Shown one piece after another: positions 329 to 31,811 of a stretch of DNA of 32,534 nucleotides (the stretch's first letter is position 1; each line of letters begins with the position of its first letter). The notes beneath the pieces were generated by a model. That model had not been told where the DNA came from and searched no databases. It was given only the letters and a program-made list of their open reading frames with translations. A program made the translations under genes and the position numbers. Where the stretch lies: IMG/VR virus record IMGVR_UViG_3300035510_000237. One strand, given 5' to 3'. This stretch comes from a virus.

Positions 329-523
329 ATGAAGAAAAAAGAGCTATAGGCTCTAGCGAAAAAGATTGCTAACGCAGAATATATCATTTAGCACAGCGAT
401 GATAAAAAGGCTATCGCAAGAGCGCAAGAGGAAACTATTAAACTTTGTAGTCATGTTGATAGTCTTGATGACATTACTTTAATAGATGAATATGTTCAAG
501 AATATTTAAGAAAAAAATCTTGA
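329..523 (+). CDS. hypothetical small protein (64 aa, 2 in-frame TAG read as Gln)
   Basis: ATG at 329 and TGA stop at 521-523. Two internal TAG codons (EL-TAG-AL and II-TAG-HS). The gene overlaps the -35 box of the next promoter. Confidence 0.45.
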
Positions 524-548
524 CAATTTAAAATTTTTTTGTTATAAT
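519..548 (+). promoter_or_regulatory. sigma70-type promoter
   Basis: TTGACA at 519-524, 18-nt spacer, TATAAT at 543-548. It is followed by the RBS AAGGAG at 597-602. Confidence 0.45.
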
Positions 549-613
549 ATTTACATGAAAAGTTCAAGAAATTTAGAACAAATATTTTTAATTTTAAAGG
601 AGATTATTTAATT

Positions 614-877
614 ATGGCAATGAGCGAGAAGTCTAAGAAGATTTTTGAGTATTTGAAGAGCATTAATGGTGCTAATGTTACTGCTGCTGATGTGGCAACT
701 ACCCTTGGCCTTGAGAAGCGTACAGTTGATGGCGCATTCACTTCTGCAATTTAGAAGAAGGGCTATGGTATTCGTGTTCCCGCAGAGGTTGAGCTGCCAG
801 ATCACTCTCATGCAAAGGTGAAGTTCCTCCAGCTGACTGACGAGGGCATGGCGCTGGATCTTGACTCACTTGAGTAA
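614..877 (+). CDS. winged-helix DNA-binding protein (87 aa, 1 TAG), paralog of 3412-3768
   Basis: RBS AAGGAG, ATG at 614, TAA at 875-877. Reads ...ADVATTLGLEKRTVDGAFTSAI(TAG)KKGYGIRV, which is HTH-like and resembles ...KDIAEGLFVSSRTVSGAFRKLVSDGFVEKV in the 3412 gene. Codon usage is GC-richer than in neighbouring genes. Confidence 0.55.
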
Positions 878-886
878 TTAATTATA

Positions 887-918
887 AAGGGGTAGAGTAA
901 TCTGCCCCTTATTTTTAT
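887..918 (+). terminator. rho-independent terminator
   Basis: 10-bp stem AAGGGGTAGA/TCTGCCCCTT with one G-U pair and a GTAA loop, followed by ATTTTTAT. Confidence 0.7.
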
Positions 919-924
919 AAAACC

Positions 925-1914
925 ATGTTTATTATTTATATTTTAATTGGTCTAATTGTTGGCGCAATTGCTGCATATTTAATTATTAGGCCAAAATTAA
1001 AAACTACTCAAGTGGCAGACCAAGAAACCGCTAATAAAAATCAAGAACTTTTAAATAAAAACAAAGAATTATCTAAAGAATTAAATTAGCGACAAGAAGA
1101 ATTAACTTCTTTAAATCAGTAGATTTATATTCTTGACGATAAAAAAATTAGATATACAGAAGAATTACAAAACCAAATAGACCAAAGTAAAGAGATTGCT
1201 AAAACTATTTATGACCAAGATTTAAAACTTGCTAAGAATCAACTTGAAAAAGATAAAGAGCAATTAAAAAAAGATTATTAGCAAGCTTCACAAGAATTTT
1301 CAGAAGCTTATTTAGAATCATTAAATGATTCCGCTAAATATTTTACTACTACTATTACCAGCAAAAAAGAAACTCTTGATGCTTTAGAGGAGTAGATTGC
1401 TCAATATAATAAAGATATGTCTGCAATGGTTGAAGCTAATAAAAGAGCAGAAGAAATATCTTAGCAATCAAATTTTTATCGTTTAAATCTTTCTGATGAA
1501 GATATTGAAGAAATTAAAAAGTTGCGTTCTATTATTCCTTATTTAAGGAACCCAGAAGCTTTAAATAAAGTAATTTGGAAAACATATTATGAAAAGCCTT
1601 ATTCAGATTTAGTTGGCCGAGTAATTGGAACCGGAGTTCATACTGGAATTTATAAAATCACAAACCTAGAAAACGGAATGTGTTATGTAGGCTAGAGCGT
1701 AAATTTGATAGAACGTTGGCGGCAACACATTAAACGAGGTATTGGCGCAGAAACGCCAACCCGCAATAAATTATATCCAGCCATGTTAGCTATTGGAGTT
1801 GAAAATTTCACTTTTGAAGTTATTGAGGAATGTAGTAAAGATTAGCTGGATGAACGAGAAGATTATTGGCAAAACTATTTCCACTCAAATGAGTTTGGAT
1901 ACAGCATTAAATAA
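925..1914 (+). CDS. membrane-anchored coiled-coil protein with C-terminal GIY-YIG nuclease domain (329 aa, 8 TAG)
   Basis: The N-terminus MFIIYILIGLIVGAIAAYLIIRP is a transmembrane helix. About 200 aa of K/E/Q-rich coiled coil follows. The C-terminus GIYKITNLENGMCYVG(TAG)SVNLIERWRQH...NFTFEVIEE is a GIY-YIG domain. TAG occupies the conserved Gln of YIGQS. The stop is TAA at 1912-1914. Confidence 0.65.
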
Positions 1915-1927
1915 GGAGATTATTTAA

Positions 1928-2220: not shown

Positions 2221-2586
2221 TTGGAATTTAGAAATATTAGAACTTTTAATTGGGAAAATGCGCTGAGGGGAATGCGCAATCCTAAAGAGTCATATGATAG
2301 AATTGACAGCTAGTATGGTATTGCGCCTTATGATGCTTATGAGGATGTCGTAAATACTTTTATCTAGGAATTAGAGCCTGACGCAGAATATTCAGAAGAA
2401 TTTTATCAGAATAGTATTATTCACGAAGGTATTCTTGGGGATGATTCTTATATTGAATATGCTATGATTGGCCCTAAAGACATGAAGCTGGCGCAGACTC
2501 TTATTAAGGCTGGCCCAGAGCATCGTAAATTTCTACGTTAGATTTTCGTGAGTGTAGATATTACCGCTCCGTTATACTGGTATTAA
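2221..2586 (+). CDS. Thy1/ThyX-like (flavin-dependent thymidylate synthase-like) protein, exon 1 (3 TAG)
   Basis: TTG start after GAGGAG. Reads ...IKAGPEHRKFLRQIFVSVDITAPLYWY, which resembles the ThyX segment ...GHE-P-EH-F-F-V-APIF-. It ends in TAA at 2584-2586, directly before the intron-like sequence. Confidence 0.45.
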
Positions 2587-2899
2587 GGAGAAATTCTTTC
2601 TGCCAATGAAATACTTTTCCTAGTTATCGCTAGGGGTTGCGGATTTCCAATTTTTTGGTAAAACGCAGCTAACGGGGAACCACCCATTGGAATCCCGTGG
2701 GAAACTAATTGAATGATTAGAACCTGTAGAGACTATTCCCTAAGCCTTATGGGCAGGGAAGTAGGGCTACTATTGATACGTAGTTATGTTTTAGGAAACG
2801 AAGCATATGAAAATCGAAATGGTATCCTTCACAAGAAGTAAAAGATAGTCCACAAATGGGAAAGAATTTGATACCTACAAAGTCGGCACTGTCGCTAAC
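2587..2899 (+). mobile_element. ORF-less group I intron (approximate bounds) splitting the thyX-like gene
   Basis: A GC-richer non-coding insert. The core R-like element GTAGAGACTAT (GACTAT at 2731-2736) and the S-like element AAGATAGTCC (ATAGTC at 2845-2850) can pair as P7. Short hairpins are present, for example CCCA...TGGG at 2688-2706. Confidence 0.5.
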
Positions 2900-3340: not shown

Positions 3341-3347
3341 GTTAATA

Positions 3348-3376
3348 TTGACTTTTTAAATTAAATATGATATAAT
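3348..3376 (+). promoter_or_regulatory. sigma70 promoter with extended -10 (TTGACT-17-TGaTATAAT)
   Basis: TTGACT at 3348-3353 and TATAAT at 3371-3376. The motif ATATGATATAATATATATA is repeated at 5934-5952. Confidence 0.5.
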
Positions 3377-3411
3377 ATATATACAAGATATAGAAAGTGA
3401 GTTTTTAGAAA

Positions 3412-3768: not shown

Positions 3769-3789
3769 TTAAAAAAAGGAGAAAATATT

Positions 3790-4734
3790 ATGTCTAAGAA
3801 AATGATTAATGAATGCCATATCGAAGGATTTCTCTATAATCATACTCTCAAGGAGAAGGTAACTGGCGAGACTTCTAAGAACCCTGGTACTCAGTATATT
3901 ACTGGCGAGGTAGAGATTGCTACCGATAATAACCTGACAAATGTTGTAAAGGTGCATTTTACTTATGTGACCGCGATTACAAAGAGTAAGCAGCCCAATG
4001 CAACTTATACGACACTGAAGAATATCATTGATGGTAAGCTGAAGTCTATTATGGGCGATGGCATTGAGAATGCAGCTAAGCTTCGTATTGATACTGCTAT
4101 TGGTCTAAGAGAGTTCTATTCTGACCGTAATGGTAATGAAGAGCTTGTTAGTGTTAAGCGCAATGAGGGTGGTTTTGTTCATAATGCTTCTCTGCTGAAT
4201 GAGGATGAAAATAAGCGTAATACCTTTAAGACAGATATGGTCATTACAAATGTTGTCCATGTTGAAGCAGATGAAGAGACTTCTACTCCTGAGAAGGGGA
4301 TTGTTAAGGGCTTTGTCTTTAATTTCCGCAAGGATTTGCTCCCTGTGCAGTTTACAGTGCTGAATCCTAATGCTATCAGTTATTTTGAGAGCCTTGAAGC
4401 ATCTCCTAATACGCCTGTATTTACTCAAGTTTGGGGCCGTCAGGTATCTCAGACTACTGTAAAGCAGACTATTACTAAGTCTGCTTTCGGCGAGGATGAC
4501 GTTAAGGAAACTGTAACTTCTCAGAAGGATTTTGTCATCACTGGTGCCCTTGCTGATACTTATATTTGGGATGATGAATCTACTATCCTTGCATCTGAGT
4601 TCCAGACCGCTCTTAATGAAAGAGAGATTACCCTGGCAACTCTGAAGAAGAATGCCGATGAGTATAAAGCTAAGAAGGCCGAGACTGCAAATGTGAGTGC
4701 TGCGGCTCCTGCGGCTGGCGTTTTTAACTTTTAA
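3790..4734 (+). CDS. hypothetical protein (314 aa), adjacent to the Sak4-like ATPase, possibly a ssDNA-binding partner
   Basis: RBS AAGGAG, ATG at 3790, TAA stop. No TAG. Codon usage is GC-richer (AAG, GAG, CTG). Function is inferred only from position. Confidence 0.55.
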   Translation: MSKKMINECHIEGFLYNHTLKEKVTGETSKNPGTQYITGEVEIATDNNLTNVVKVHFTYVTAITKSKQPNATYTTLKNIIDGKLKSIMGDGIENAAKLRIDTAIGLREFYSDRNGNEELVSVKRNEGGFVHNASLLNEDENKRNTFKTDMVITNVVHVEADEETSTPEKGIVKGFVFNFRKDLLPVQFTVLNPNAISYFESLEASPNTPVFTQVWGRQVSQTTVKQTITKSAFGEDDVKETVTSQKDFVITGALADTYIWDDESTILASEFQTALNEREITLATLKKNADEYKAKKAETANVSAAAPAAGVFNF

Positions 4735-4753
4735 TTAACCTTGAGGTGGCATA

Positions 4754-5885: not shown

Positions 5886-5891
5886 TACATA

Positions 5892-5945: not shown

Positions 5946-5977
5946 ATATATAGAAAGAATAGAAGGGAGCGTAAAAG

Positions 5978-6661: not shown

Positions 6662-7912
6662 GTGACCAGTATAATTCAGGTAATTGGTTGTGTATTTAAT
6701 ACACCACAACTTTTGGATTATACTGATAAGTATACAATTATAGATGAAGATTTCCCCAATTCATTCCATAAAATTGTATTTGGGGCAATTTATAAACTCC
6801 ATGAATTAGGGTCAGAAAAAATTACGCTAGAAACAGTTTCAGATTTCTTATCTTCTCGCCCAAAAAGCTATGCCATTTATCAAAAAGAAAAAGGCGAAGA
6901 ATGGTTAATGAATGCGTCAACTGCCGCAGTTGAGTTATCTTTTGATTATTATTATCATAGAATGAAGAAAATGACTTTGCTTCGAGCTTATGATAATTGC
7001 GGTATTGATGTCAGTGATATTTATGACCCAGACAATATTTTAGATACAAAAAAGAAACAGCAACAAGAAGATTATTTAGATAATTCTTCACTTGACCAGA
7101 TTGCTGATAAAATTGATGAAAAGATTAGTTCTATACGACTCCAATATGTTGATGACGCTTATGGAGAAGCATATCAAGCAGGTGATGGAATTATGGAGTT
7201 AATTGATAAATTTAAAGAAGCTCCAGAAGTAGGTATTCCATTATATGGTCAGTTAATTAATACGGTTACGCGAGGCGCAAGATTAAAAAAGTTTTATCTT
7301 CAATCTGCGGCCAGTGGTGTTGGTAAGACTCGTAGCATGATTGCGAATGCTTGTTTTATTGCTTGTGATAAGATTTATGATGAATCATTCGGATGGATAA
7401 AGAATGGGACAAAAGAGCCTACTTTATTCATTACAACAGAGCAGGAACTTGAAGAAATTCAAACTATGATGTTAGCTTTTCTTTCAAATGTAAATGAGGA
7501 ACATATCTTAAATGGTTCTTATGAGGGCAATGAAGAAGAAAGAGTGCGGGAGGCCGCAATTTATCTTTCAGAAAGTCCTTTATATATTGAAGAACTTCCT
7601 GATTTTTCATTAAAGGATGTTGAAGATAGAATAAAGAAGAATATAAGAGATCATGATGTAAAGTATGTGTTTCATGACTACATTCATACCAGCCTCAAGA
7701 TTCTCGAAGAGATAACTCGTCGCAGTGGTGGAATTAAACTCCGAGAGGATAATGTCTTGTTTATGCTATCTACAAGGCTTAAAGATATGTGTAATAAATA
7801 CGGTATCTTTATTATGTCCGCAACTCAGTTAAATGCGGACTATCAAGAATCTAAAACTCCTGACCAAAATCTACTTCGTGGTGCAAAAAGTATTGCTGAT
7901 TGGACAAAGTAA
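6662..7912 (+). CDS. dnaB: DnaB-like replicative helicase, exon 1 (start codon uncertain: GTG at 6662 or earlier)
   Basis: A DnaB N-domain pattern is followed by Walker A SAASGVGKT and ...IMSATQLNADYQESKTPDQNLLRGAKSIADW. That last segment aligns to the DnaB motif SQLNRSLEQR...SDLRESGSIEQDAD. The ORF then stops in TAA at 7910-7912, at the point where the intron begins. Confidence 0.8.
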   Translation: MTSIIQVIGCVFNTPQLLDYTDKYTIIDEDFPNSFHKIVFGAIYKLHELGSEKITLETVSDFLSSRPKSYAIYQKEKGEEWLMNASTAAVELSFDYYYHRMKKMTLLRAYDNCGIDVSDIYDPDNILDTKKKQQQEDYLDNSSLDQIADKIDEKISSIRLQYVDDAYGEAYQAGDGIMELIDKFKEAPEVGIPLYGQLINTVTRGARLKKFYLQSAASGVGKTRSMIANACFIACDKIYDESFGWIKNGTKEPTLFITTEQELEEIQTMMLAFLSNVNEEHILNGSYEGNEEERVREAAIYLSESPLYIEELPDFSLKDVEDRIKKNIRDHDVKYVFHDYIHTSLKILEEITRRSGGIKLREDNVLFMLSTRLKDMCNKYGIFIMSATQLNADYQESKTPDQNLLRGAKSIADWTK

Positions 7913-9075
7913 TTGAATAATTTACTATCAATTTTTATATAGATTAAGGGATAAAGCGAAAATCTATATAAGGAGCGATAAATATGAAAAAAATAGAATT
8001 AACACAAGAACAAATAAGCCAAATATTAAACTTATATAAGAATAATTACTCTCAACAAAAGATTGCTAATATTTTAGAGGTATCTAGGCCTGTTATAAAA
8101 AGAGTTCTTACCGAGAACGAGGTTCTGTTAAGAGAAAGAACTCATAAATATAAAGCAGATTATGATATTTTTGAAAATATAGATACTCCAGAAAAAGCTT
8201 ATTGGTTAGGTTTTATAGCAGCAGATGGTTGTAATTATTAGAGAGAGAATAATTCTTCAATAATCATTTCTATAAACTAGAAAGATATTGACCATTTAGA
8301 GAAATTTAAAAAATTTGTAAATACTAATGCTGAAATAAAACTTTTTGAGCAAGATATGGGGTATTCAAATAAGACCTAGATGTGCAAAATAGTTTTAAAT
8401 AGTAAAAAAATGAGTAATGATTTATATGATAAAGGTATAGTGCCTAATAAAAGTTTAATATTAGATATTCCAAAAATAGATGAAAAATATTATTATCCAT
8501 TTATTCTAGGATATTTTGATGGTGATGGTTCTATAAGTAAAACTAATTGTTATAATAATTATTGTATTAGCTTTCAAGGAACTAAAGAAATTTTAAATTG
8601 GATAAATAATTTATTTGAAATTTCAAAATTGGATAAAAGATAGAAAGAAAGTTCTAAGAATAGTTATTATATTAGGTGTGGTGGAACTAATAAACCATAT
8701 AATATATTAAAATAGCTTTATGATTCTTGTGAAGTTCATTTAGATAGAAAATATAAATTATTTAAAGCTTTGGAAACAGTCGTCCTTAGTAGAAATACTA
8801 AGTGATTATTAGACCGAGAATTGCTGGAAAACCCTTAGAGCTAATTAAACTACAACGTAAATATGAAATAAAATTAAGCGTGAATGTTTGAAAATTAATT
8901 AGATTGGGTAATCAGCAGCCGAGCCTTGAAGAGAGGAAGGTTCAACGACTATCTGGTAGCGCAGAGTAGCAGAAATGCGAAGTACGGTCTACCTAAACTC
9001 TTAATAAAAGAGCAGGGTAAAGATATAGTCTACTCCTTTATGAAAATAAAGGTATTAAGGAAAATTGATTATGGT
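7903..9075 (+). mobile_element. group I intron (approximate bounds) in dnaB, carrying a LAGLIDADG homing endonuclease ORF
   Basis: The core R element GGTTCAACGACTATC (GACTAT at 8947-8952) and the S element AAGATATAGTC (ATAGTC at 9025-9030) match the IA-type consensus. A P9-like hairpin CCTTTA...TAAAGG lies at 9036-9053. A 10-bp hairpin at 7936-7970 sits just before the endonuclease RBS. Confidence 0.6.
7984..8805 (+). CDS. LAGLIDADG homing endonuclease with N-terminal HTH (273 aa, 5 TAG)
   Basis: RBS AAGGAG, ATG at 7984. Two LAGLIDADG motifs, LGFIAADGC and ILGYFDGDGS. TGA stop at 8803-8805. Internal TAGs at 8239, 8278, 8380, 8641 and 8713. Confidence 0.75.
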
Positions 9076-9546: not shown

Positions 9547-10647
9547 ATGCTGTCTTTTGATAAAGATGAAATTAAGGAGCAGTTGGATATAGCCGATATA
9601 TTCCAACTGCTTTTTGATTTCGGGGGAAATCCCAAGTATACAGATTTTGGAATTATTTCTCAGACCATCTGCCATAATAAGCCAGGAGAAGGAAGTTATA
9701 AACTTTATTACTATGAAAATAGTCAAGCTTTTTATTGCTATACCGATTGTGGATTTTTGGATATTTACACTCTTGTAATTAAAGTCGCAGGTATTCAATT
9801 CAATAAAAACTATAATTTAAATGATGCCATTAGGTGGGTAGCAAATAGATTTAATATTAGTGGTAGTTATGAAAGTGAAGCTAGTGAACAATTAGAAGAT
9901 TGGGTTTATTTAGAAAATTATAAAAGGATTGAAGAAATAAATCCAACTTCAAATGAGCAGATCACCTTAAAAGAATATAACAATAAAATTTTATCTCGAT
10001 TAAATTATAATGTTAATATTACACCTTGGTTAAATGAAGGAATTACTCAAGAAGTCTTAGACTTGGCTATGATTGGTTTTTACCCTGGAGGCGACCAGAT
10101 AACGATTCCGCATTTTGATAAAGATAATCGTTTTATAGGTTTGCGCGGCCGTACACTATCTCTTGAAGATGCTGAAAAATATGGGAAATATCGACCCGTT
10201 AAAGTAGGAAAACAACAATTCAATCATCCTCTTGGAATGAATCTTTATGGTTATAACTGGAATAAAGACAATATCCGAAAAATGAAAAAAGTTATTGTTT
10301 TTGAATCTGAAAAATCGGTTTTAAAATATGCTTCTTATTTTGGATGGCAAAATAATATTTCAGTTGCGTGTTGTGGCAGTAATATATCTTCTTATCAAAT
10401 GCGACTATTATTCGATTTAGATGTCGAAGAAGTAATTGTTGCTTTTGATAAGCAGTACCAAGAGTTAAACACTGACGAAAGTAAACAATGGAAAAATAAA
10501 CTTTTAAAGATTTATAATAAATATCACCAATATTGCAATATTTCTTTTATGTGGGATAAAGGTCATTTACTTGGTTATAAAGATTCTCCAATTGACGATG
10601 GAAAAGAAATTTTTCTGGAGCTATTTAAAGAAAGGGTTATATTATAA
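9547..10647 (+). CDS. dnaG: DnaG-like DNA primase (zinc-binding plus TOPRIM domains; 366 aa)
   Basis: Zinc-ribbon motif CHNKPGEGSYKLYYYENSQAFYCYTDCG and TOPRIM-like segment VIVFESEKSVLKYASYFG...VACCGSNIS...EVIVAFDKQ. Confidence 0.7.
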   Translation: MLSFDKDEIKEQLDIADIFQLLFDFGGNPKYTDFGIISQTICHNKPGEGSYKLYYYENSQAFYCYTDCGFLDIYTLVIKVAGIQFNKNYNLNDAIRWVANRFNISGSYESEASEQLEDWVYLENYKRIEEINPTSNEQITLKEYNNKILSRLNYNVNITPWLNEGITQEVLDLAMIGFYPGGDQITIPHFDKDNRFIGLRGRTLSLEDAEKYGKYRPVKVGKQQFNHPLGMNLYGYNWNKDNIRKMKKVIVFESEKSVLKYASYFGWQNNISVACCGSNISSYQMRLLFDLDVEEVIVAFDKQYQELNTDESKQWKNKLLKIYNKYHQYCNISFMWDKGHLLGYKDSPIDDGKEIFLELFKERVIL

Positions 10648-11052: not shown

Positions 11053-12681
11053 ATGAAGCCACCAGAAACAGACTTTTATCTCCATTTAGATGATAGTATT
11101 ATTTATCCAGCTGTTTTAATTGATAGAATGACTGATGGCGCAAAAATGCTTATCCAGCATATCGTTAATAATGATAATATTTTTATCCAAGTGGACAGTG
11201 ATGCTGATGGATACACGTCTTCGGCGATTTTAATTAACTATTTAAATAAATTATTTCCGCACTATGTCTCTGAACATTTGACCTTCAGGCTTTAGGATGG
11301 CAAACAGCATGGAATTATTTTGGATACTATTCCTGACGATACTAAACTTGTAATTGCACCAGACTCTAGCAGTAATCAGTTTGATGAACACCAGCAATTA
11401 AAAGATAAAAATATTGATGTTTTAGTTATCGACCATCATGAGGCTGAAAAAATTTCAGAAGCAGCTTGTATTATTAATAATCAACTTTGTGATTATCCTA
11501 GTAAGTCTTTATCTGGCGCAGGAATGGTTTATAAATTCTGTTCATACATTGATTCCATTTTGGAAATTGATTATGCAGAGAATTATCTTGACCTTGCGGC
11601 TTTGGGTATGGTAGCTGATATGATGGATTTGCGTGACTATGAAACAAAAAGATTGATTGATAAAGGTCTCAGTAATGTTAATAACCCTTTTATGCTTGAG
11701 ATGATGAATGTACAAAATTACTCGATTGAGAAGCATGGCGGGTTTGACCCATTTTGTATTAGTTTTTATATCGCACCCCAAGTAAATGCCACAATTCGCA
11801 TGGGCAGCCAAGAAGAGAAATTACTTTTGTTTAAGTCAATGCTAGAGAATTATGCTTATGAAAAGGTTCCTTCCACTAAAAGAGGTTGTAAAGGCCAGAT
11901 GGAAACACTTGTTGAGCAAGCCTGTCGTAATTGTACTAATATCAAAAATAGACAAACTAAAGCCCGTGATGAAGGTTTTGCTATTGTTGAGAGTTTGATT
12001 GAAGAAGAAAATCTTTTAGATAATAAAATTTTATATATACAAATTCCTGAAGAAAAAGCTGTTAATAAGAATTTAACAGGTTTAATTGCAAACCAGCTTA
12101 TGGCAGAATATCAACGCCCTGTTGCTTTGTTAAATAAAGTAAATAGAGACGGTGCAACATTTTGGGAAGGAAGCTGCCGCAATTATGATAAATCTGCCTT
12201 TACGAATTTTAAAGATTTCTTAAACAATAGCAATTTAGTTGATTTTGCAGAAGGACATCAATCTGCTTTTGGTCTTGGGGTCGCAGCTGACCAAATGGAG
12301 AATTTAATTGAATATACAAATACTGCTCTCGCAGATTTCTCTTTTTCACCTCATTATGATGTTGATTTTATTTTTAGCGGTAGCAATTTTAGTCCGGCAG
12401 ATATTCTTGAAGTCGCTGAGTTAAAATATTATTGGGGACAGGGTTTATCTGAACCTTATATTGCGATTGAGCGAATTAATGTCACTAAAGACAATATTCA
12501 ATTACTTTCTCCAGACAAACATCCTACTTTAAAAATTACTCTTGCCAATGGAGTTAGTTTGATGAAATTTAAATCTTCTCAAGAAGAATTTAATAGTTTG
12601 TATAGAGATACCGGTAGTACAGTTATTACAATTATTGGAACGTGCAATGAAAATAATTGGAATGGTAATATTAGTGCTTAG
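11053..12681 (+). CDS. recJ: RecJ-like DHH-family ssDNA exonuclease (542 aa, 1 TAG)
   Basis: DHH motifs DSDADGYTSSAIL and VIDHHE. DHHA1-like segment FAEGHQSAFGLG. The TAG at 11293-11295 fuses the track ORFs 11053-11295 and 11320-12681 in one frame. Confidence 0.7.
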
Positions 12682-19100: not shown

Positions 19101-20024
19101 ATTTGGGAGACTTGTGATAAGAAGAGTCGTTTAACTCTTCAAAACTTACCGAGTTTAATTAAATTTGGATTACTTCCAGCTAGAGTAGAAGAAGAGATTA
19201 TGGCTTATCGTGTTTATGAATTTAATAGATACTTAAAAGCCATGTGTAAAACCAAAGACGGCTATTATAAATTAGACGAACGCGCAATTAATTTTCTTAG
19301 TGAAATAGATAAAACCTCTTTAATAAATAGCACGGAAAATGGTTCCATTTATTTTATGTCAGAAAAATCTTGGGACAAGGTTTATCAAAGATGGATGGAT
19401 GTTTTTAGAGATTGGATTAAGAGTGATAAAGATAATATCTTAATGAGCCTTAATAACAGTATCTTCCAAGAGGATTGGTGCAATTATGCAAAAGGCTCTC
19501 TGTCAACTTGGGAAATGGCATCTGTTTGCTTCTATTATCATGAACATGAATTAGCGAATGTTAATAGAGGAATGTATGGGATTGTAGATTTTTATAGCTT
19601 GCCAGAAGACCCTGTAGTTGCAAAAACTTTCTCTAAAGGCGGAAAAGAAATTAAGATTTTTAAGCTCTCTAAGATTTGCGGTACCTGTATTGCCAAAAAT
19701 AAGGCAAAAGGCACAGTTTCCCTATTGACAACCACTGGTGTTGTTGAGGTTAAATTTTCTAAAGAATATTTTTCTATGTTTGACAAACGAATCTCTCAGG
19801 TAGATGCAAAAGGGAAAAAGAAAGTCATTGAGTATAGTTGGTTTAATAGAGGCAGTATGATTCTGGTTCAGGGCATGCGCTCAGGCGATAATTTTGTCGC
19901 TAAGAAATATGCCTCTCAAGGCGGCCATCAGCTTTATAAAATTGATAAACTTGAAGATGACGGTTCTCTTATTCTTCGCACAGAGAGATATACTGGCGAT
20001 GCAGAGGAAGATGATAGTGAATAA
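16104..20024 (+). CDS. dnaE: DNA polymerase III alpha-type (DnaE-like) replicative polymerase with N-terminal PHP domain (1306 aa, no TAG)
   Basis: PHP motifs LHNHTQYSNL and AITDHES. Conserved DnaE motif GRGSGVGFILLYVLGITQINPL. The GTG start directly abuts AAGAGGG, so the start is uncertain. Confidence 0.85.
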   Translation: MVNISERFFPGSLHNHTQYSNLRLRDCIIKENDLIDYAIKLGHEVVAITDHESVSNAVKVQKYYNKIKKEHPDFKVILGNEIYLCRNGLTKDTFIKGEDSYWHFILLAKDAIGHQQIREISTKAWYRSWMTGKMRRVPTYYQDLEDIIGANQGHVIGSTACLGGFLPSLINKYKAAENEEEKDLILNRIHVFCDYMENKIFGKGNFFFELQPSDSEEQTYVNSFLITLSKELNIPYIITTDSHYLAKEDRPIHKAYLNAQNGDREVDAFYATTYMMDTEELESYLDLTENDLEVAYQNIKKIKDMCSDYDLQKSLKIPQLMWKKPESLIHPKAYYNKIPYLQTFVDSDYYGDNVLAQHIVDRLFWDETLQNQASYDAIEECLKMTWESSVVNKTHWSAYYLNLQKIIDVCWEAGSIVGPGRGSGVGFILLYVLGITQINPLRETTKTFAWRFLNPSRVSVLDVDFDIEGGRRPQVLAKFREVYGEDRVANVITFGTEKSKQAILTAARGLEMDNNDAQYISSLIPADRGITRTLHQCYYGDKENDYAPIALFVKEMNNNPELWEIAQKIEGLVCRMGIHAGGVIFVDEPFTNSTGLMRAPDGTIITAFDLHDCEAVSLIKYDALSVEAEDKIHICLDLLCDAGHIQRQNTLKETYESALGVYNLERDDPKMWEMVWNHKILSLFQMEKQSGIQGIALTKPKSVEDLAHLNSVIRLMAQEKGGEQPLQKFARFKHNINLWYQEMDKYGLTKEEQELLKPYLLGSYGICESQEGFMQLVQIPECGGFDLNWADRLRKSIAKKNPKEFDQLAKEYFARVEEQQLSKPLCSYVWNVLVSTSKGYGFNLSHTLAYSLVALQEMNLAFRYPIIYWNCACLITDSGSIEYDDIDIEDKEDQSTNYDKIAQAIGKMRDAGVEISLVNINESGYTFIPDEKNNKIWFGLKGLVNVGDEVVEQIIQNRPYLSVKDFYYRVKPKKNVMIALIKGGAFDSLMDRTECMIWYIWETCDKKSRLTLQNLPSLIKFGLLPARVEEEIMAYRVYEFNRYLKAMCKTKDGYYKLDERAINFLSEIDKTSLINSTENGSIYFMSEKSWDKVYQRWMDVFRDWIKSDKDNILMSLNNSIFQEDWCNYAKGSLSTWEMASVCFYYHEHELANVNRGMYGIVDFYSLPEDPVVAKTFSKGGKEIKIFKLSKICGTCIAKNKAKGTVSLLTTTGVVEVKFSKEYFSMFDKRISQVDAKGKKKVIEYSWFNRGSMILVQGMRSGDNFVAKKYASQGGHQLYKIDKLEDDGSLILRTERYTGDAEEDDSE

Positions 20025-20689: not shown

Positions 20690-22918
20690 ATGGCTAAAAT
20701 CATTAAACGTGATGGTTCATTGGCTACTTTTGATAAAGATAAAATCATAAATGCTATTAACAAAGCATTTATCGAAATAGATGGAACTTTATATGAAACT
20801 GATACTGCAAAAGATATTGCCGCAGATATTGAAGATAAGGTCTTAGAAAGTTCTGCAACTATAACAGTTGAAACTATTTAGGATTGGGTAGAAGATTATT
20901 TAATGGCTTCCGATAGAAAAGATGTCGCAAGGTCTTATATTCGTTATCGTTATAAGAAAGAAGTTGTAAGAAATCTTCATAGTGATTTCTTTGATGCTAT
21001 TGGAGAAAAACTTTCAGCTAGTAATGTCCAAAATCAGAATGCTAATGTAGATGAACAATCTTTCGGCGGGCGCATTGGAGAAGCCGCAAGTGTAATGACA
21101 AAGAATTATGCTTTGACTCAAATAGTTTCTGAAATGGCTAGAAAGAACCATGAAAATAATGAAATTTATATTCATGACTTGGATAGTTATGCTGTCGGTA
21201 TGCACAATTGTTTGTCAATTCCTTTTGATGATTTGCTCGCCAAAGGATTTAATACCAGACAAACAGATGTGCGGCCAGCCAATAGCGTAAATACAGCTTT
21301 CCAACTTGTTGCAGTTATTTTCCAGCTTCAATCTCTTCAGCAGTTCGGCGGCGTGAGTGCTACTCATATTGATTGGACTATGGTCCCATATGTAAGAAAG
21401 AGCTTTTATAAACATTATGCTAATGGTTTAAAGTATTGTGAACATCAAGAAAAATATATTGATGGATTTACGAGCGAAATGTCAATACATGATAGTGCGT
21501 ATTATGAATATAGCCCATTGGCATATGACTACGCCATGGATATGACAGTTAAAGAAATCTATCAAGCAGTTGAAGGTATGTATCATAACCTCAATACTCT
21601 TCAAAGCAGAAGTGGCAATCAGTTGCCTTTTACTTCTATTAACTATGGTACGTGCACTTTGCCAGAAGGTAGGATGATAACTAAGGCTCTTCTTGAAGTC
21701 TCTCTTGAAGGACTTGGAAAGCTTCATAAAACTTCTATTTTTCCATGTGGAATTTTTCAATGTATGAAAGGTGTAAACCGCGCACCTGGCGACCCTAATT
21801 ATGACTTATATCAGCTAGCATTAAAATCTACAGCACAAAGATTATACCCTAATTACGCGAATGTTGATTGGAGCGGTAATGCTGGCTATGATATTAACGA
21901 TCCTAGAACATACTTCTCAACGATGGGTTGTAGGACCGCCAATGGCTGGGATATTAACGGTTTTGGCCAGCTTAAAGACGGTAGAGGCAATATTTGCCCA
22001 GTTACTATTATTATGCCAACGTTGGCTATGGAGGCAAAAGAAATGGCTTCTAATAGTGATTTTCAAGTTGAGCCTGAAAAAGCTATAATTCGTTCTTTTA
22101 TGACTTTACTTGATGCAAAAATCTGTGAAGCTAAGGATATGCTTCTGGAGCGTTTTAACTGGATTTGCGCGCAAGACCCCTCTAGTGCAAAGTTTATGTA
22201 TGAGAACAATGTAATGGCTGGTTATGTTCCTGAAGAAGGAATTAAAAGCGCGCTAAAACATGGCACTTTAGCAATTGGACAACTTGGTTTGGCTGAGACA
22301 CTTCAGATTCTTGTCGGCTGTGACCATACAGAAGCAAAAGGCATGGAATTAGCTAAGACGATTGAACAGCTATTCAAGGATAGATGTGCTCAGTTTAAAG
22401 AAGAATATCATTTAAATTTTGGTGTATATTATACCCCAGCAGAAAATTTATGCCATACGGCTTTAAAGAAATTTAAAAATAAATATGGTGTAATTGAAAA
22501 CGTATCTGATAAAGATTTCTTTACTAATAGTATTCATGTTCCTGTATGGAAGGAAGTTAGTCCTTTTGATAAAATTGATATTGAAAGTCAACTAACTGGA
22601 TATAGTTCTGCGGGCTGTATTACTTATGTTGAGCTAGATACAAGTGTAAAGAAAAATTTAGAGGGACTTGAAACCATTGTTAATTATGCTATGGACCATG
22701 ATATACCATACTTCGCTGTAAATACAATTAATGACACTTGTTTAACGTGCGGATATACAGATGAAATAAATGATGTCTGTCCTATCTGTGGAGGAACAAA
22801 AATTCAACAATTACGTAGAGTGACTGGATATTTGACAGGTTCGTATAAAGATGCTTTTAACAAAGGTAAGATCCAAGAAACCGAAATGCGAGTTAAACAT
22901 ACTGGGAGACTCGAATAA
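20690..22918 (+). CDS. nrdD: anaerobic ribonucleoside-triphosphate reductase (class III RNR; 742 aa, 1 TAG)
   Basis: N-terminal ATP-cone MAKIIKRDGSLATFDKDKIINAINKA. C-terminal zinc ribbon CLTCGYTDEINDVCPICGG and glycyl-radical motif RRVTGYL. The TAG at 20879-20881 fuses the track ORFs. The ATG at 20690 follows GGAGG. Confidence 0.85.
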
Positions 22919-23604
22919 TGGGTGTTATATATAAATATGAAAATAATATCAACCATCATATTTATATTGGGCAAAGTGTAAATTTAAAAAAGAGGATTAG
23001 AGAACACAAATGCGCGTTCTCTAATCCTAATAACCCAGATTACGACTTCCCAATTCATCGAGCATTAAGAAAATATGGAGTTGAAAATTTTACTATTTCT
23101 ATCTTAGAAGAAGTAGAAGATAACGCACTTGATGAAAGAGAAGTATATTGGATTGCTTATTATGATTCATACAAAAATGGATATAATGCCACCCCTGGAG
23201 GACAAAACGGAGGAAGCTATAATGGGAAAGAAGTTTGTTTATATGATTTAAATGGTAACTTTGTAAGAAGTTATAAAAATGCTAAAACAGCTTGTGAAGC
23301 AATAAAAGTTTCTTATTCTACAATTTAGCAAGTTTTACATCAAAAAAGACCGACCTGCAAAGGCTATTAGATAAAATATAGAGATGATAATAGAGAGATA
23401 AAAAAGTTTAAATCTCGTCAAGGAGGCGCTATACCTATTTATTAGTTAGAAAAAAATACTAATAATATAATTAAAGAATGGGATAGCGCACAATAGGCCG
23501 CTAGGGAATTAAACTTAGACGCTTCTACCATTACAAAATGTTTAAAAGGTAAATTAAAAAGTCATGGCGGTTATAGTTGGAAATATAAGGAGGAATAGAA
23601 ATGA
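22918..23604 (+). CDS. free-standing GIY-YIG homing endonuclease (I-TevI-like) with C-terminal NUMOD/HTH region (228 aa, 5 TAG)
   Basis: GVIYKYENNINHHIYIGQSVNLKKRIREH reads YIGQS with Gln as CAA. C-terminus ...LNLDASTITKCLKGKLKSHGGYSWKY. The start overlaps the nrdD stop (TAATGG) and its TGA overlaps the nrdG ATG. Confidence 0.75.
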
Positions 23605-25782: not shown

Positions 25783-26208
25783 TTGAATATTAAGCTTTTA
25801 ACAGATACGGCTAAAGTCCCTTATCGTGGGTCTGCGGCCGCAGCTGGTTACGATATTTATGCAGATGAAACTATTATGATTCTTCCTGGTGAGGTATCTA
25901 AAGTTCATACAGGAATTGCTACTGAACTTCCTGAAGGAACATTTGCAGGCATTTATCCTAGAAGTGGCCTTGCTACTAAGAACGGTCTGCGGTTGGCTAA
26001 TTGCGTGGCTGTTATTGACTCAGATTATCGTGGCGAATGGCTAGTTCCAATTTATAATGATTCTAGTTCTCCTCAGATTATTTCTAAGGGCGACCGCATT
26101 GCGCAGATGGTTATTCATAAATATGAGACTGTTGACTTTAATGTTGTTGATAAATTAAACGATACTATTAGGGGTGCTGGTGGTTTTAATTCCACTGGGA
26201 TAAGATGA
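25783..26208 (+). CDS. dut: dUTP diphosphatase
   Basis: All five dUTPase motifs are present: AGYDIYA, RSGLA, VIDSDYRGEW, RIAQMV and RGAGGFNSTG. Confidence 0.85.
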   Translation: MNIKLLTDTAKVPYRGSAAAAGYDIYADETIMILPGEVSKVHTGIATELPEGTFAGIYPRSGLATKNGLRLANCVAVIDSDYRGEWLVPIYNDSSSPQIISKGDRIAQMVIHKYETVDFNVVDKLNDTIRGAGGFNSTGIR

Positions 26209-26696
26209 TAAAACTTTTAGCCCTTGACTAGGCTTCAAATGTTTCAGGTTGGGCTGTTTTTGAAGATGGAAAATTATTGGAAAGCGGCACCTTTACCGCT
26301 AAAGGAAAGGACCTTGGCGAACGTCTTTATGATATTCGCCAAAAGGTCTCCAACCTTATTTCTAAATATAATATCAATTATTTAATTTTTGAAGATATTT
26401 AGCTTTAGGGAAATGTAACCGGTAATGTCCAAACTTTTAAAGCCTTGGCAGAAGTATTTGGAATTATTTATGAATTGGCCACTGAATTAAATATTCCCAA
26501 CGAGGCAGTATTAGCTAGCTCTTGGAAATCTACTCTTGGCATTAAAGGCCGATAGAGAGCGGAACAAAAGCGAAATGCGCAAAAGTACGTCCTGGAAAAT
26601 TATGGCAAAAAGGTATCTCAAGATGAATCAGATAGTATTTGTATTGGCACACACTATTTCCTAAAGCAATAGAAAGTCTTTGACTGGTCGGATTAA
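26205..26696 (+). CDS. ruvC: RuvC-like Holliday-junction resolvase (163 aa, 5 TAG)
   Basis: Reads MIKLLALD(TAG)ASNVSGWAVFEDGKLLESG and DESDSICIGTHYF, with the catalytic Asp/Glu pattern of RuvC/YqgF-fold resolvases. It overlaps the dut stop. Confidence 0.65.
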
Positions 26697-27736: not shown

Positions 27737-27738
27737 TG

Positions 27739-28158
27739 TTAAGCCACCCTTTCAATAATAATATTTGCGTGCTCCACACTAATGGACTAATCTCCTACAT
27801 TCATGACACTAATCTAAGAGCAGCAGTTTTTTGGTACATCCACAAATACAGAAGAAGAAACATTATTAAAATCTTCTACATCTCCTGGAGTGGAAATCAT
27901 AGTTGTAGATACTATTGGCTCACCATCAATCGCTATTGCTAAACTGGCAGGACCGGCAGTCCCACCAGTAGGTATAGCAATATTGGCACCAAAAGTAATA
28001 CGGTATCTAGCTCGACACTATTGCGTCAAGCCACGTAAAGTTACTAAGCCGCTACCAACCCGATGTAGCATACTACAGTTGCCTGGAATTACAACTGTAG
28101 TAAATAAAATATCTTGATTAGTAGAGACTGTCTGAACAGCATTACTTGTAAGCTCCAT
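27739..28158 (-). CDS. hypothetical beta-rich protein (139 aa, 3 TAG), possibly a C1q/BclA-C-terminal-like domain
   Basis: RBS AAAGGAG 9 nt before ATG (plus CAT 28156-28158). Reads ...GANIAIPTGGTAGPASLAIAIDGEPIVSTTMISTPGD. Confidence 0.45.
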
Positions 28159-28175
28159 AATCTTAATCTCCTTTA

Positions 28176-28889
28176 TCAAGCAGCGCAATTACAGCCGTTA
28201 TAGGTATAACCATATAACTGAGATGCTGGAAATGCTGGAATAGGGGTTGGGCGCAGTTGATTGACCAAATACTGGTTCTGCGAGCACTGTGAAAGCTAGA
28301 AGTTTGCCCCTAAAAGTTCAGTATTCTTAGCTTCTAAACGGTCGCGTAAATCCTGCATAGTATTAGAATTAATCAGAGCGCGAGTAGCTTCGCCTTCCTG
28401 ATGAATAGCGTTAGTGATATCGCAGGTATTCTGCGCAGCAGCATAACGGTTCTCCAGGATATTTTGCTTTACATCACAGCAACAAGATTGCATAGAATAG
28501 CGATTGTCTGCTAGATTTTGATTTACAGTGTCAAAGCCCTGCGCAACAGAACTAAAGCCTGTACACAAATCACGCTGTAAATTTCCAAAATTTGTTAAAA
28601 GAGTAGTATTATTGCTGTAGAATCCATCACATAAACCCTATGAGAGTCCACGAACACCATTTTCAACCTACTGGAAATTCATATCTTGCGCGAGTTCGCC
28701 TCTTGTTAAAGCTCCCTAAGCAGATGAATTATTGCTGCCCCAGGCACCATTACCGCCCCAGCCCATAAACATGAACAGGAACAATATGATAATCCACCAT
28801 GCGCCTCCATTACTCCCACCGAAACCATCTCTATCGCCAGTTACTGCGGCGAGGTCAGATAAAGAATAACCACTTGCTTCGTTAAACAT
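28176..28889 (-). CDS. membrane protein with Gly/Trp-flanked TM helix and Cys-rich C-terminal region (237 aa, 4 TAG)
   Basis: RBS AGGAGG 9 nt before ATG (plus CAT 28887-28889). TM segment GGAWWIIILFLFMFMGWGG resembles the YjcZ-family TM motif. Cys clusters CCCD and YNGCNCAA. Confidence 0.45.
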
Positions 28890-28915
28890 AAAAAATTGCC
28901 TCCTAAAAATATATA

Positions 28916-29149
28916 TTATTTAATCCCAAGCTATTGCTTAAAGGAATTAAATTCGGTATCAAAATCTACGCCTTTCTATTGGCATAGATTACGAGCAATT
29001 TGTTCAATCTCCGCAGTTTTATTATTCTTGGCTAAATTTAATAAATTACTTCCTAATGGAGTATCTGCCATTTGAGATTCTAACATATTCAACACAAATT
29101 GTTGAGGATTACTGCCCATCTACAGAAGGGTCATTGGATTTATATTCAC
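28916..29149 (-). CDS. hypothetical small protein (77 aa, 3 TAG)
   Basis: RBS AAGGAGGG 6 nt before GTG (plus CAC 29147-29149). TAA at plus 28916-28918. Confidence 0.4.
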
Positions 29150-29161
29150 TTATATCCCTCC

Positions 29162-29539
29162 TTAAAAATTATATTCCGTAGATTCATTTGTAGAAGGAAT
29201 CTACGGAAGGGCAGATTTGATCTGGTTAATGGCTGACTCAAACTCTTCTCTTGTTATGTAATTGCCCATATTATTATTTATTTGTTCAGTTGTGGGCATT
29301 TCCTTTAATTCATACATATTGAAAAGCGCTGAGCCATCCATCCCAATCTGTTTAGTATAAATGCGTTTATTTGCCAAATCTGGAAAAAAGAATACTGACC
29401 CATCAAAATCAATAGTGGTGGCTCTTACTTCGTCCAATGAGGATACTGGCCTACCTTTTAAATTATACTATAGCTATTGTTGATAAGTGTTCTATGTCCG
29501 GTATGGCGTTTGTTGCTATGGATAGTAGTTAGTATACAT
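29162..29539 (-). CDS. hypothetical protein with Gln/Tyr-rich N-terminus partly encoded by TAG (125 aa, 5 TAG)
   Basis: ATG (plus CAT 29537-29539) after AAGGAA. Reads MYTNYYPQQQTPYRTQNTYQQQLQYN..., where four of the Gln codons are TAG. An alternative ATG lies at 29581. TAA at plus 29162-29164. Confidence 0.4.
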
Positions 29540-29659
29540 TTTATTTCCTTCTTTCTAACAGTTCTTCTCTAACCCTTCCATAGCTATATAAAAAATAAAT
29601 GGGATAAATTTACTAATTTTGTCCTAAAAACTTAAAAAAATTTTTAATAAAATATAACA

Positions 29660-29716
29660 GAAAAATGGGGAACCGCTCTACCTTTAAAGAGCGGTTCCCC
29701 ATTTTATTTTTTATTA
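29660..29716. terminator. bidirectional rho-independent terminator
   Basis: 13-bp perfect stem GGGGAACCGCTCT/AGAGCGGTTCCCC with T-tracts on both strands. Confidence 0.75.
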
Positions 29717-30106
29717 AGAAACCTTTAATTGATTAACCTGTGACTCAATTTTTTGATTGATATAAGTCTCTAAATCTCCAACAGCAGAAGATAAATAGCT
29801 TTGTGCCTCTTGGCTCAGGATTGTCATAACTGCTTGATAAGTTTGCTAGAAAGCAGCTTTTTGAGCTTCTGTGTCAAAACTACCTTGAGCTTTTAAAGAA
29901 TTTACATATGTTTGATTTGTAGCAGTTACACATTCTGTAATTGTCTAATCTAACATCTCAATATATTTCTTAGTTGTTTCATCCTCTATATTAGAAGTAA
30001 CTTCCTCAGTCTTAGAATTTATCCATTTAACAAAGAAACTCGTTAAAATGGTTAAAAGTGGAATTAAAACAATCTCAAAAATTTCAGTGATTAATTCTTG
30101 TGCCAT
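29714..30106 (-). CDS. holin-like protein: N-terminal TM helix plus long coiled-coil tail (130 aa, 2 TAG)
   Basis: RBS AAGGGAGAG 6 nt before ATG (plus CAT 30104-30106). Reads MAQELITEIFEIVLIPLLTILTSFFVKW..., followed by a Q/E/K-rich helix. Confidence 0.45.
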
Positions 30107-30223
30107 ATAAATCTCTCCCTTCATATTAAATATGAAAAAGTAGCATAATAAATTATCTAACTTAGGCCATTTAAAGATAATAATATTCTACTAAAAATTA
30201 ACAAATATAGAGATAATTTCCAG

Positions 30224-30252
30224 TTGCATTATGATGAAAAAAATGATATAAT
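30224..30252 (+). promoter_or_regulatory. sigma70 promoter (TTGCAT-17-TGaTATAAT)
   Basis: TTGCAT at 30224-30229 and TATAAT at 30247-30252, upstream of the DGR target gene. Confidence 0.5.
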
Positions 30253-30284
30253 ATTTATAGAAATTAAGAAAGGAGGAACGTATT

Positions 30285-31811
30285 ATTTCAAACAAAGTAA
30301 TTTTACTTGAATAGGGTGGAATTAACACCAATGCAGTTACTTTATCAGGCATTACTGTCTCAACATTACCGACTAAAACAGTATATGAATACGGTGATTC
30401 TTTTGACCCTACTGGCATGGTAATTACTGCGACTTATACTGATGGTACTACTGCAATAGTATCTAATTATATTTATACACCAACTTCTGTTTTAAATACA
30501 ATAGGAAGTTAGGCAGTCCTTATATCTTATAGCGAAAACGGATTAACTTATCTTAATAGTGTAACAATTACAGTAAACCGTAAAAAAATTTCTATACCTA
30601 CTTGGAAATCAAATTTAACTTATAATGGTAATACCTAGCATGTAGATGCTGAACAATATTGGAATAATTATGATTCTAGTAAAATGGTTATTAGTGGAAC
30701 TACATCTGGCACAAATGCTAGTACGTATTCCGCTTCATTTACACCAGGAAGTAATTATTAGTGGTCTGACGAAACAACTTCTGCAAAATCTGTAAATTGG
30801 ACTATTAATAAGGCTACTGGATATTTATATATAAATGGAAGTGTCAGTAGCCCAACAGTAAGTTTAGATTCTAGTAATTCTAGTTACTCTGCTACCATAA
30901 CAGGTTCAGGTACTATTAGTTATACACCTACTTCAGTGACTGGATTAACTTTAAGTCTTAGCAATGGGACTTTCACTGTTAAAGCTACAGCTAATGTTTC
31001 CTCACAAATTATTACCATTAAATGCGCGGCAAGTACCAATTATACAGCCCCTGCAAATTTAACTATTACAGTTAGCGCAAATGTTTGGTCATGGGGAGAT
31101 GAAACTGCAGTAGGCGACGCTGACTGGTGGGCTAGACTAAAGTCTTGGGCTTCTACAGCTTCTGCCACAGAAAGATCTGATTGCGTTGGTAAGAAAAAAT
31201 TAGTCAGCTTATCTACCTCAGTGCTTGGCGCTAATGCGGCTACAATGATATGTATTGGAGCTGACTAGGATGGGTCAAATACTTTAACCTTTTAGACTGC
31301 TGGAGTATTGCCCAATACAACTGCTTTTAGCTCTTCTAGTGCCGTTTGGATAGGTTCTACTGCTAGAACTTTATGTTAGAATTTCTATAATTATTGTAGT
31401 GCAAAAAATTCAATAAAAACTATTAGTAAAGGCACTTGCGCATCTACTAATAGTTCTAAAAGTGGCACAGCAACTTATAATGATGAAACAGTTTTTTTAC
31501 CATCAGAGGCTGAAATGGGTTTAGATTCTTATTCTAGCTTGACTTATAGTAATTCTACTACAAGTAACGCCGAATGTACTAAAGGATTAAAATTTAAATA
31601 TAGTTATTATAGTTCTAATACTACAAGAATTAAATATGTTATGAGCGCAGATGGTACAATTGGTTCAACAGCTGGTTATTATTGGGAGAGGTCGCGTTAC
31701 TACAACTCGGGCAACTCGAACATTGTTTGCCATGTCTACGGTGATGGATCTGCGGTCAACTCCGGCTACTACAACAGCTGTTACTTGGCCCCCGCTTTCG
31801 CCATCGGCTAA
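30285..31811 (+). CDS. DGR target (variable) protein: bacterial Ig-like domain plus Ser/Thr-rich region plus C-terminal variable repeat; putative receptor-binding tail fibre (508 aa, 7 TAG; apparent ATT start)
   Basis: GGAGGA at 30272-30277 is followed by ATT ATT, and no in-frame ATG/GTG/TTG occurs upstream. An Ig-like domain VTLSGITVSTLPTKTVYEYGDSFDPTGMVITATYTDGTT follows. Seven TAGs interrupt the frame, and the gene ends at TAA 31809-31811. The last 36 codons are the VR. Confidence 0.7.
31690..31798 (+). repeat. DGR variable repeat (VR)
   Basis: 109 nt. 92 of 109 positions are identical to the TR at 32392-32500. All 17 mismatches lie opposite TR adenines. The 3' end TTACTTGGCCCCCG is shared with the TR (IMH-like). 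Confidence 0.85.

Follow-up and report, generated by a model that had tools for sequence, protein, structure and literature searches.

In-frame TAG codons are read as sense, most probably as glutamine, in the replication module of an SPbeta/EF1-like phage

The stretch of viral DNA considered here (IMG/VR record IMGVR_UViG_3300035510_000237; 32,534 nucleotides (nt), hereafter the window) has a guanine-cytosine (GC) content of 34% and lacks a close relative among isolated phages in nucleotide searches. Its upstream genes encode the end of an NAD-ligase (with a BRCT domain), YorF, an AAA_24/Sak4-like ATPase, YorH, DnaB, and primase-like, RecJ-like, RecD-like and LPD34 proteins. The central gene encodes a DnaE-type polymerase, for which the best match in an isolate was YorL of SPbeta (38%), and guanylate kinase, NrdD, NrdG, dUTPase and RuvC genes lie downstream of it. 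After RuvC, a late block that includes a holin lies on the minus strand, and a diversity-generating retroelement (DGR) lies beyond it. The window is therefore the replication and nucleotide-metabolism module, the start of the late/lysis block and the DGR of a large SPbeta/EF1-like tailed phage, which probably has a genome of 100-170 kb and probably infects a low-GC Bacillota bacterium. An initial annotation, made from the letters of the sequence, had proposed that TAG is reassigned to glutamine throughout these genes (as in translation table 15, or code 15), with TAA and TGA retained as stops.

Open reading frames (ORFs) bounded by TAA or TGA tile the window almost without gaps, on the plus strand at 329-27205, on the minus strand at 27251-30124, and on the plus strand again at 30297-32359. 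Trimmed gene models contain 76 in-frame TAGs, distributed over 26 of 40 genes; the count is 74 when two TAGs within a 277-bp insert (2584-2860) are set aside, and approximately 84 in raw stop-to-stop ORFs, so the figure of more than 80 given initially was roughly right. The share of genes affected is about two-thirds, rather than the third first estimated. All gene ends are TAA (32) or TGA (8), as annotated, and no gene in the tiling requires a TAG stop, although this is partly true by construction. Beyond an in-frame TAG the reading frame remained open for a median of 96 codons, compared to 9 past real stops and 10 past 927 out-of-frame TAGs (Mann-Whitney, p = 2.5e-9). The comparison of tables 11 and 15 that had been suggested as a check, made here with a greedy ORF picker, raised coding density from 75.5% under table 11 to 94.4% with TAG as sense, while a control with TGA as sense reached 81.5% and produced many spurious strand switches. 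The proportion of the window covered by ORFs of at least 150 amino acids (aa) followed the same order (0.58 for table 11, 0.89 for TAG as sense, 0.65 for TGA as sense).

Pfam domains cross the TAGs in several genes (AAA_24, DHH/RecJ, ATP-cone and NRDD, guanylate kinase, RuvC, GIY-YIG, and LAGLIDADG), tblastn alignments likewise run across them, and the genes concerned are interrupted by TAG alone, never by TAA or TGA. Positions given in the initial annotation were verified at the nucleotide level: TAG is present at 347, 752, 1693, 5001, 11293, 12679, 20594, 20879, 26229, 26400, 26406, and 27029, CTA is found for the minus strand at 27814 and 28296, and CAA is present at 22972. In near-identical strains, every TAG that could be compared was kept as TAG (46 of 46). 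TAG is a sense codon in the window, as gene tiling, open frames past TAG and the gain in coding density confirm. TAA and TGA act as stops; a TGA-led 5-nt insert in a helicase gene, considered below, is the sole oddity and is not a reassignment.

We assessed which amino acid is read at TAG by fetching approximately 390 loci from viral and metagenome collections, clade relatives among them, and aligning every window protein to these loci at the codon level, with TAG masked as X to avoid query bias. Across 71 TAG columns (1,224 cells), the residues encountered were Gln (345), Glu (107), Ser (86), Asn (86), Thr (76), Lys (71), and TAG itself (60). Glutamine thus accounted for 30% of informative cells opposite TAG (345 of 1,164), against 36% opposite the window's own CAA and CAG codons, and in a likelihood comparison the second-best residue trailed it by more than 500 nats. 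The reverse view gave a similar picture, as TAGs of relatives fell on Gln codons of the window at 12.4 per 1,000 cells and on any other residue at 3.6 or fewer, and within the same columns TAG was exchanged with CAA or CAG among relatives. Even relatives that have diverged to 40-60% identity still hold Gln or TAG at TAG columns. Where columns are strongly conserved, Gln was found at 5 of 7 TAG columns and at 42 of 50 true Gln codons, rates that are not clearly different. TAG columns falling on gaps or on some other residue, the outcome that had been named beforehand as refuting, were looked for in the homologue alignments, and this was not the case. The residues opposite TAG instead show the profile of glutamine, which these alignments support as the best-fitting amino acid.

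Individual sites (Table 1) varied in how clearly they point to glutamine. The pair of GIY-YIG paralogues, one with TAG at 1693 and the other with CAA at 22972-22974 (YIGQS), had been presented as direct evidence, and both this comparison and the TAG at 20879 in NrdD stood up to alignment with relatives. The Sak4-like TAG at 5001 has a mixed column (Q 13, S 11). For the guanylate kinase TAG at 20594, the column was covered by a single relative and is uninformative. The RecJ-like TAG at 11293 proved to be a poor example of a glutamine site, since relatives conserve a His at this column; should TAG be Gln, a lineage-invariant position would have changed from His to Gln.

The use of TAG is markedly uneven among genes. 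YorF, DnaB, primase and DnaE together have no TAG among 96 Gln-type codons, compared to 76 of 314 elsewhere (Fisher p = 2e-10), and when all replication and nucleotide-metabolism genes are taken together the fraction is 14 of 219 (~6%), against 49 of 131 in endonuclease and late genes (p = 7e-13). TAG shares of 36-45% were found in the LAGLIDADG and GIY-YIG/NUMOD endonucleases, RuvC, a membrane protein, the late block, and the DGR target. The same contrast recurs in 16 TAG-recoded relatives, whose DnaE homologues have TAG at 0 of 608 Gln-type codons and whose RuvC homologues have it at 71 of 152 (47%). The gene-by-gene bias in TAG use is therefore conserved across the clade, and it may act as a timing gate.

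Table 1. Coordinates of the recoded region, of informative TAG sites and of principal genes in the window
Feature	Position	Strand	Details
TAG as sense codon	329..31811	.	74-76 in-frame TAGs in ~26/40 genes; TAG = 18.5% of Gln-type codons
First small gene, TAG (exception)	347..349	+	Lys in 11/12 relatives
Small winged helix-turn-helix (wHTH)-like protein, TAG	752..754	+	Gln in 26/29 relatives
GIY-YIG motif, TAG (YVG-x-S)	1693..1695	+	Gln in 19/24 relatives, plus 7 with TAG
YorF-like protein	3790..4734	+	0 TAG
DnaB helicase, exon 1	6662..7900	+	0 TAG; exon 2 at 9061-9339
LAGLIDADG homing endonuclease, within DnaB intervening sequence	7984..8805	+	5 TAGs (42% of Gln-type codons)
Primase-like gene	9547..10647	+	0 TAG
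RecJ-like gene, TAG (exception)	11293..11295	+	His in 39/40 relatives, motif L-H-x-G-K-x-H-G; alignment unambiguous
RecJ-like OB domain, TAG	12679..12681	+	Invariant Gln, 36/36 relatives, plus 4 with TAG
DnaE-type (SPbeta YorL-like) DNA polymerase	16104..20024	+	1,306 codons, 51 Gln codons, 0 TAG
NrdD ATP-cone, TAG (ITVETI-x-DWVE)	20879..20881	+	Invariant Gln, 21/22 relatives; Gln in PDB 8p23 and 9d3x
GIY-YIG/NUMOD homing endonuclease, between nrdD and nrdG	22918..23604	+	5 TAGs (45%)
RuvC-like resolvase	26205..26696	+	5 TAGs (45% of Gln-type codons); Gln or TAG in relatives at 26229, 26400, 26406
Late block, four genes	27739..30124	-	15 TAGs; includes holin 29714-30124 (phrog_13712)
Late-block membrane protein, TAG (CTA on + strand)	28296..28298	-	Gln in 13/16 relatives
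DGR target gene (Big_3 domain)	30297..31811	+	Variable repeat (VR) 31690-31797; 7 TAGs vs 2 CAA

Candidate decoders of TAG were found in relatives, reached by way of a TAG-free gene of 500 aa that adjoins the tRNA cluster of the clade member L150 (L numbers denote fetched loci). Two recoded relatives have a tRNA(CUA) in their tRNA cluster, on the same contig as the homologous replication module and ~40-55 kb away from it. In one case, the cluster (L367) and the module (L018) share contig IMGVR_UViG_3300028048_000053, and in the other the cluster (L365) and the module (L052) share contig 3300031998_000028; both contigs are TAG-recoded. In the CUA tRNAs of these relatives, and in those of the code-15 phage phAss-1, the 1:72 pair is weak or mismatched and G73 is present, and both are identity elements of tRNA-Gln.

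Relatives overall differ in code, some being standard-code, others TAG-recoded, and others apparently TGA-recoded. On contig IMGVR_UViG_3300035520_000607 (L349/L189), from a clade relative, a tRNA with a UCA anticodon is present and ORFs lengthen more with TGA as sense. L340, a contig of more distant kinship whose only shared gene is the 500-aa one adjoining the tRNA cluster, has a UUA tRNA. Given these UCA and UUA tRNAs, close relatives seem to use different codes. A UUG (Gln) tRNA of 84-86 nt with a long variable arm also occurs in some relatives (L021 at 22235-22320, L022, L024, L045, and L008), where it adjoins a 76-nt tRNA with a CAA anticodon; its carriers are nearly TAG-free (0-2 in-frame TAGs each).

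Searches for the remainder of this phage's genome returned little beyond the window. Viral, metagenome and genome collections scanned for exact patterns from the right end gave no match, and look-ups of exact proteins returned only contigs that are contained within the window or overrun its right end by just 0.5-1.7 kb. A scan of metagenomes with the ligase fragment yielded only relatives whose identity did not exceed 71% and whose flanks were free of suppressor tRNAs. A generic scan for CUA tRNA patterns gave, among the matches listed, mostly unrelated phages, and a scan specific to the L150 tRNA gave five contigs, none with a fetched DnaE-homologue locus.

The mechanism we propose begins with a TAG-suppressor tRNA (anticodon CUA) that would be encoded in the phage's tRNA cluster, elsewhere in the genome. 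The glutamine-charging machinery of the host would load this tRNA with glutamine, and the charged suppressor would then out-compete release factor 1 (RF1) at TAG. Genes needed first (DnaE, DnaB, primase, and YorF), being TAG-free, could be translated under the standard code of the host, while endonucleases, RuvC, holin, and other late genes would yield full-length products only once the suppressor is active. For the clade, decoding by a suppressor tRNA is well supported; for this phage, whose window is without a tRNA, we infer it. The phage would accordingly be expected to carry a CUA tRNA of its own, presumably charged with glutamine. Considered jointly, sequence comparisons make it very probable that the window is an SPbeta/EF1-like phage module in code 15, with TAG read as Gln and TAA and TGA as stops, and with decoding by a CUA suppressor.

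Several observations weigh against this explanation. No tRNA is present in the window, where ARAGORN at relaxed thresholds returned spurious intragenic matches only, and no suppressor tRNA was found in relatives within ~10 kb of DnaE, the gene at 28176, or the ligase. The CUA tRNAs of relatives show no obvious paralogy to the tRNA-Gln genes of those relatives, and the one in L367 (6615-6708, 94 nt) has a long variable arm, as does the first of those in phAss-1. At two TAG columns that are well conserved, the residue is other than Gln (His at 11293 and Lys at 347). Finally, a swap of TAG for CAG or CAA was sought among near-identical strains and none was found, all 46 comparisons being TAG to TAG.

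Among alternatives, the one that fares best is that TAG is a leaky stop with inefficient read-through, serving mainly to hold down the levels of endonuclease and late proteins. The exclusion of TAG from DnaE, DnaB, primase and YorF, and its rarity in long conserved enzymes, would favor this idea because such exclusion is expected if every TAG costs yield, and only 40% of TAG-recoded genomes were found to carry suppressor tRNAs (Borges et al., bioRxiv 10.1101/2021.08.26.457843). However, genes with five to eight TAGs (RuvC, the DGR target, and the gene at 29162-29581) need efficient suppression for a full-length product, and TAG terminates no gene. We consider a leaky stop improbable as the principal explanation, and it overlaps with the timing-gate form of glutamine reassignment rather than opposing it.

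A smaller likelihood attaches to TAG being sense but encoding another residue, or an ambiguous one, such as Ser, Leu or Tyr via a long-arm CUA tRNA, or pyrrolysine. Bacterial tRNAs with a long variable arm are typically those for Ser, Leu and Tyr, such an arm being unusual for Gln, and the long-arm CUA tRNA (91-94 nt) is homologous between L367 (6615-6708) and phAss-1 (62442-62532). The near parity of Q and S at column 5001, together with His at 11293 and Lys at 347, also points in this direction. Against it, the likelihood of Gln exceeds that of Glu, Asn, Lys and Ser by the margin given above, invariant columns are Gln, and the share of Ser opposite TAG (~7%) is close to that opposite true Gln codons (~5%). 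Pyrrolysine is opposed by the lack of pyl genes in domain searches of the window proteins, and by the spread of TAG over 26 unrelated genes in which it aligns to Gln. Residues other than glutamine are therefore quite unlikely.

It is more unlikely still that the host itself reads TAG as Gln and that the phage simply matches the code of its host. TAG would then have no reason to be kept so strictly out of early replisome genes across the clade, the occurrence of close relatives that are standard-code or apparently TGA-recoded fits phage-borne recoding, and the hosts of published code-15 phages use the standard code (Borges et al., bioRxiv 10.1101/2021.08.26.457843). The last alternative, that the standard code applies, with TAGs as true stops in a decaying or fragmented (pro)phage rich in pseudogenes, might be suggested by the Joint Genome Institute (JGI) standard-code calls on identical contigs, which are fragmented just as the initial annotation had predicted (LAGLIDADG as 85 + 87 aa, AAA_24 as 37 + 293 aa), but it is already refuted by interruptions that are TAG alone, the median of 96 open codons past TAG, TAG columns kept as Gln or TAG at 40-60% identity, the retention of all 46 TAGs in near-identical strains, and a DnaE that is TAG-free clade-wide.

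Besides the reading of TAG as glutamine, a second non-standard decoding event may occur in the RecD-like helicase gene (13411-14594). From a TTG start at 13411 it reads MTLTNKQEEGLKEIVARHRRGEKYTVVSGYA, followed by TGA at 13504, and GTGKSTLVKF... resumes from 13509 in another frame. Five nucleotides, TGACT (13504-13508), therefore interrupt the coding sequence of Walker A, after the GYA codons and before those for GTGKST, and the helicase could be made only by ribosomes that get past them. They are also present in an independent contig that is 100% identical. Approximately 30 relatives have no insert at this site, while others have different inserts at the same spot, namely TAACT, TGAACT, TGAGTT, TAAGGCG, TAAGACA, TAAAGGCG, TAAAAGCT, and TAAAAGTT (relatives listed for the site: L044, L019/L020/L046, L025, L385, L386, L393, L370, L377, and L047/L053). 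Insert lengths are 0, 5, 6, 7 or 8 nt, and every insert begins with TAA or TGA, never TAG, and ends with GCN (Ala) or a triplet one mismatch off. Both flanks are conserved in their own frames, the G-x-G-K-S/T motif is intact, and insert-bearing and insert-free alleles are interleaved in the helicase tree.

Independent initiation of the C-terminal part was rejected given that there is no in-frame start codon past the insert, as was a -1 slip at GGGTTTG, since the upstream frame is conserved as far as GYA. A natural short stop-hop, in which peptidyl-tRNA-Ala would take off at GCC, skip the stop and land beside GGN, would fit every allele; no single fixed frameshift could accommodate lengths of 5, 6, 7 and 8 nt alike. 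Stop-hops have been reported only from synthetic constructs, according to a 2016 review, and we put this interpretation forward as tentative and rather doubtful. In one relative (L391, ~400-1497), the P-loop region of the helicase has an insertion of ~1.1 kb that ends ...THN|T (a C-terminal H-N-T motif). It resembles an intein placed directly behind GTGKS, and the site of the 5-nt insert lies a few codons upstream. Given this intein-like insertion, the P-loop region may be a target for mobile elements.

Other genes of the window are also split. An intervening sequence of 1,160 bp (7901-9060), carrying the free-standing LAGLIDADG gene, divides DnaB, whose exons (to 7900 and from 9061) are contiguous in L018, L006, L273, and L292; the sequence is intron-like. 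The 277-bp insert at 2584-2860 has no ORF and splits a phrog_6721 gene, the halves of which are contiguous in L283, L292, and L309. Its positions 2721-2806 match Enterococcus phages EF1 and EF5 at 87.5%, the only nucleotide match of the window to an isolated phage. Rfam searches of both intervening sequences gave no group I intron and no other match. A ThyX identity for the genes at 2221-3340 was considered and rejected, there being no Pfam match and only a hit to phrog_6721, to which no function is assigned.

Besides its C-terminal GIY-YIG domain, the gene at 925-1914 encodes a membrane helix at the N-terminus and a long coiled coil. Because its syntenic position is unchanged in many relatives (L273, L276, L277, L292, and others), it seems to be a resident of the genome and not a mobile homing endonuclease. 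The RecJ-like gene has ATA at 10981-10983, where relatives start with ATG or TTG (I-D-Y-K-L-I versus M-D/E-Y-K-L-I); no canonical start codon was found upstream of the conserved N-terminus, and the sequence is the same in an identical independent contig. In the DGR (30297-32534), the template repeat (TR, 32392-32499) and VR are 85% identical, with all mismatches at TR adenines. An Avd-like gene lies at 31886-32359, and the reverse transcriptase is beyond the window. The seven TAGs said to break the DGR target gene were all counted.

The main value of recognizing the code lies in correct annotation with table 15, as table-11 annotation of this phage and of many of its relatives is badly wrong. 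The JGI calls split genes into short "hypothetical proteins", and therefore lysis genes, gene function and host range (the DGR target) would be missed. The clade also offers a clean, clade-wide case of the proposed late-gene timing pattern, with a TAG-free replisome and TAG-rich homing endonucleases, resolvase and holin.

The closest classical parallel to the proposed decoding is supE of Escherichia coli, in which suppression at UAG is achieved by tRNA-Gln(CUA) in competition with RF1. Both would rely on a Gln-charged CUA tRNA that competes with RF1, but supE is a weak host mutation that gives partial suppression, whereas here the suppressor would be borne by the phage and the genome would depend on it.

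Among phages, phAss-1 (OQ749652) is a 136-kb siphophage of the proposed "Phassvirus" group, related to Enterococcus phage EF1, in which TAG is Gln (PMC10607447); NCBI taxonomy files it under "Caudoviricetes code 15 clade". It shares DnaE, RecJ, YorF, AAA_24, primase, RuvC, NrdD/NrdG, and a GIY-YIG gene with the window. The window has no counterpart to its three tRNA-Sup-CTA genes, two of which are directly upstream of nrdD. The three named Phassvirus genomes are 80-86% identical to one another at the nucleotide level (Babkin et al. 2023, PMC10607447). The window phage is outside this genus, because it has no nucleotide-level (megablast) match to phAss-1, shares 27-40% amino-acid identity with it, and differs in gene order.

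The uneven use of TAG resembles that described for Agate, one of the "gemstone" clades of alternatively coded gut phages (Borges et al., bioRxiv 10.1101/2021.08.26.457843). Agate phages are ~150 kb in size, have predicted Firmicutes hosts, and differ in code even between close relatives. In these phages, replication genes are without recoded stops, while structural and lysis genes are enriched in them, as is the endonuclease of a group I intron that lies within an early gene, and the authors read this unevenness as a translational timing gate (bioRxiv 10.1101/2021.08.26.457843). The window has in common with Agate replication genes free of recoded stops, recoded endonuclease and lysis genes, low GC, and a dominance of TAA stops. 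However, the Agate analyses cited concern TGA-recoded genomes, and Agate membership is defined by placement in the phylogeny of the large terminase, a gene that the window does not have.

In crAss-like code-15 phages, TAG as Gln has been confirmed by metaproteomics (Peters et al. 2022, PMC9523058). These share that decoding with the window but belong to an unrelated podovirus-like lineage with Bacteroidota hosts and have replication genes unlike those found here. Existing gene calls also point the same way, as Logan calls on a contig 100% identical to positions 2694-14734 already translate TAG as Q, and a public collection holds the exact Q-containing LAGLIDADG and AAA_24 proteins. The initial annotation had framed the reassignment as remarkable, but the pattern is that of published code-15 phages. 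The window adds an SPbeta/EF1-like lineage to these phages and leaves current understanding unchanged; TAG as Gln has been documented in phages repeatedly, and the phage described here is an ordinary further case of code 15.

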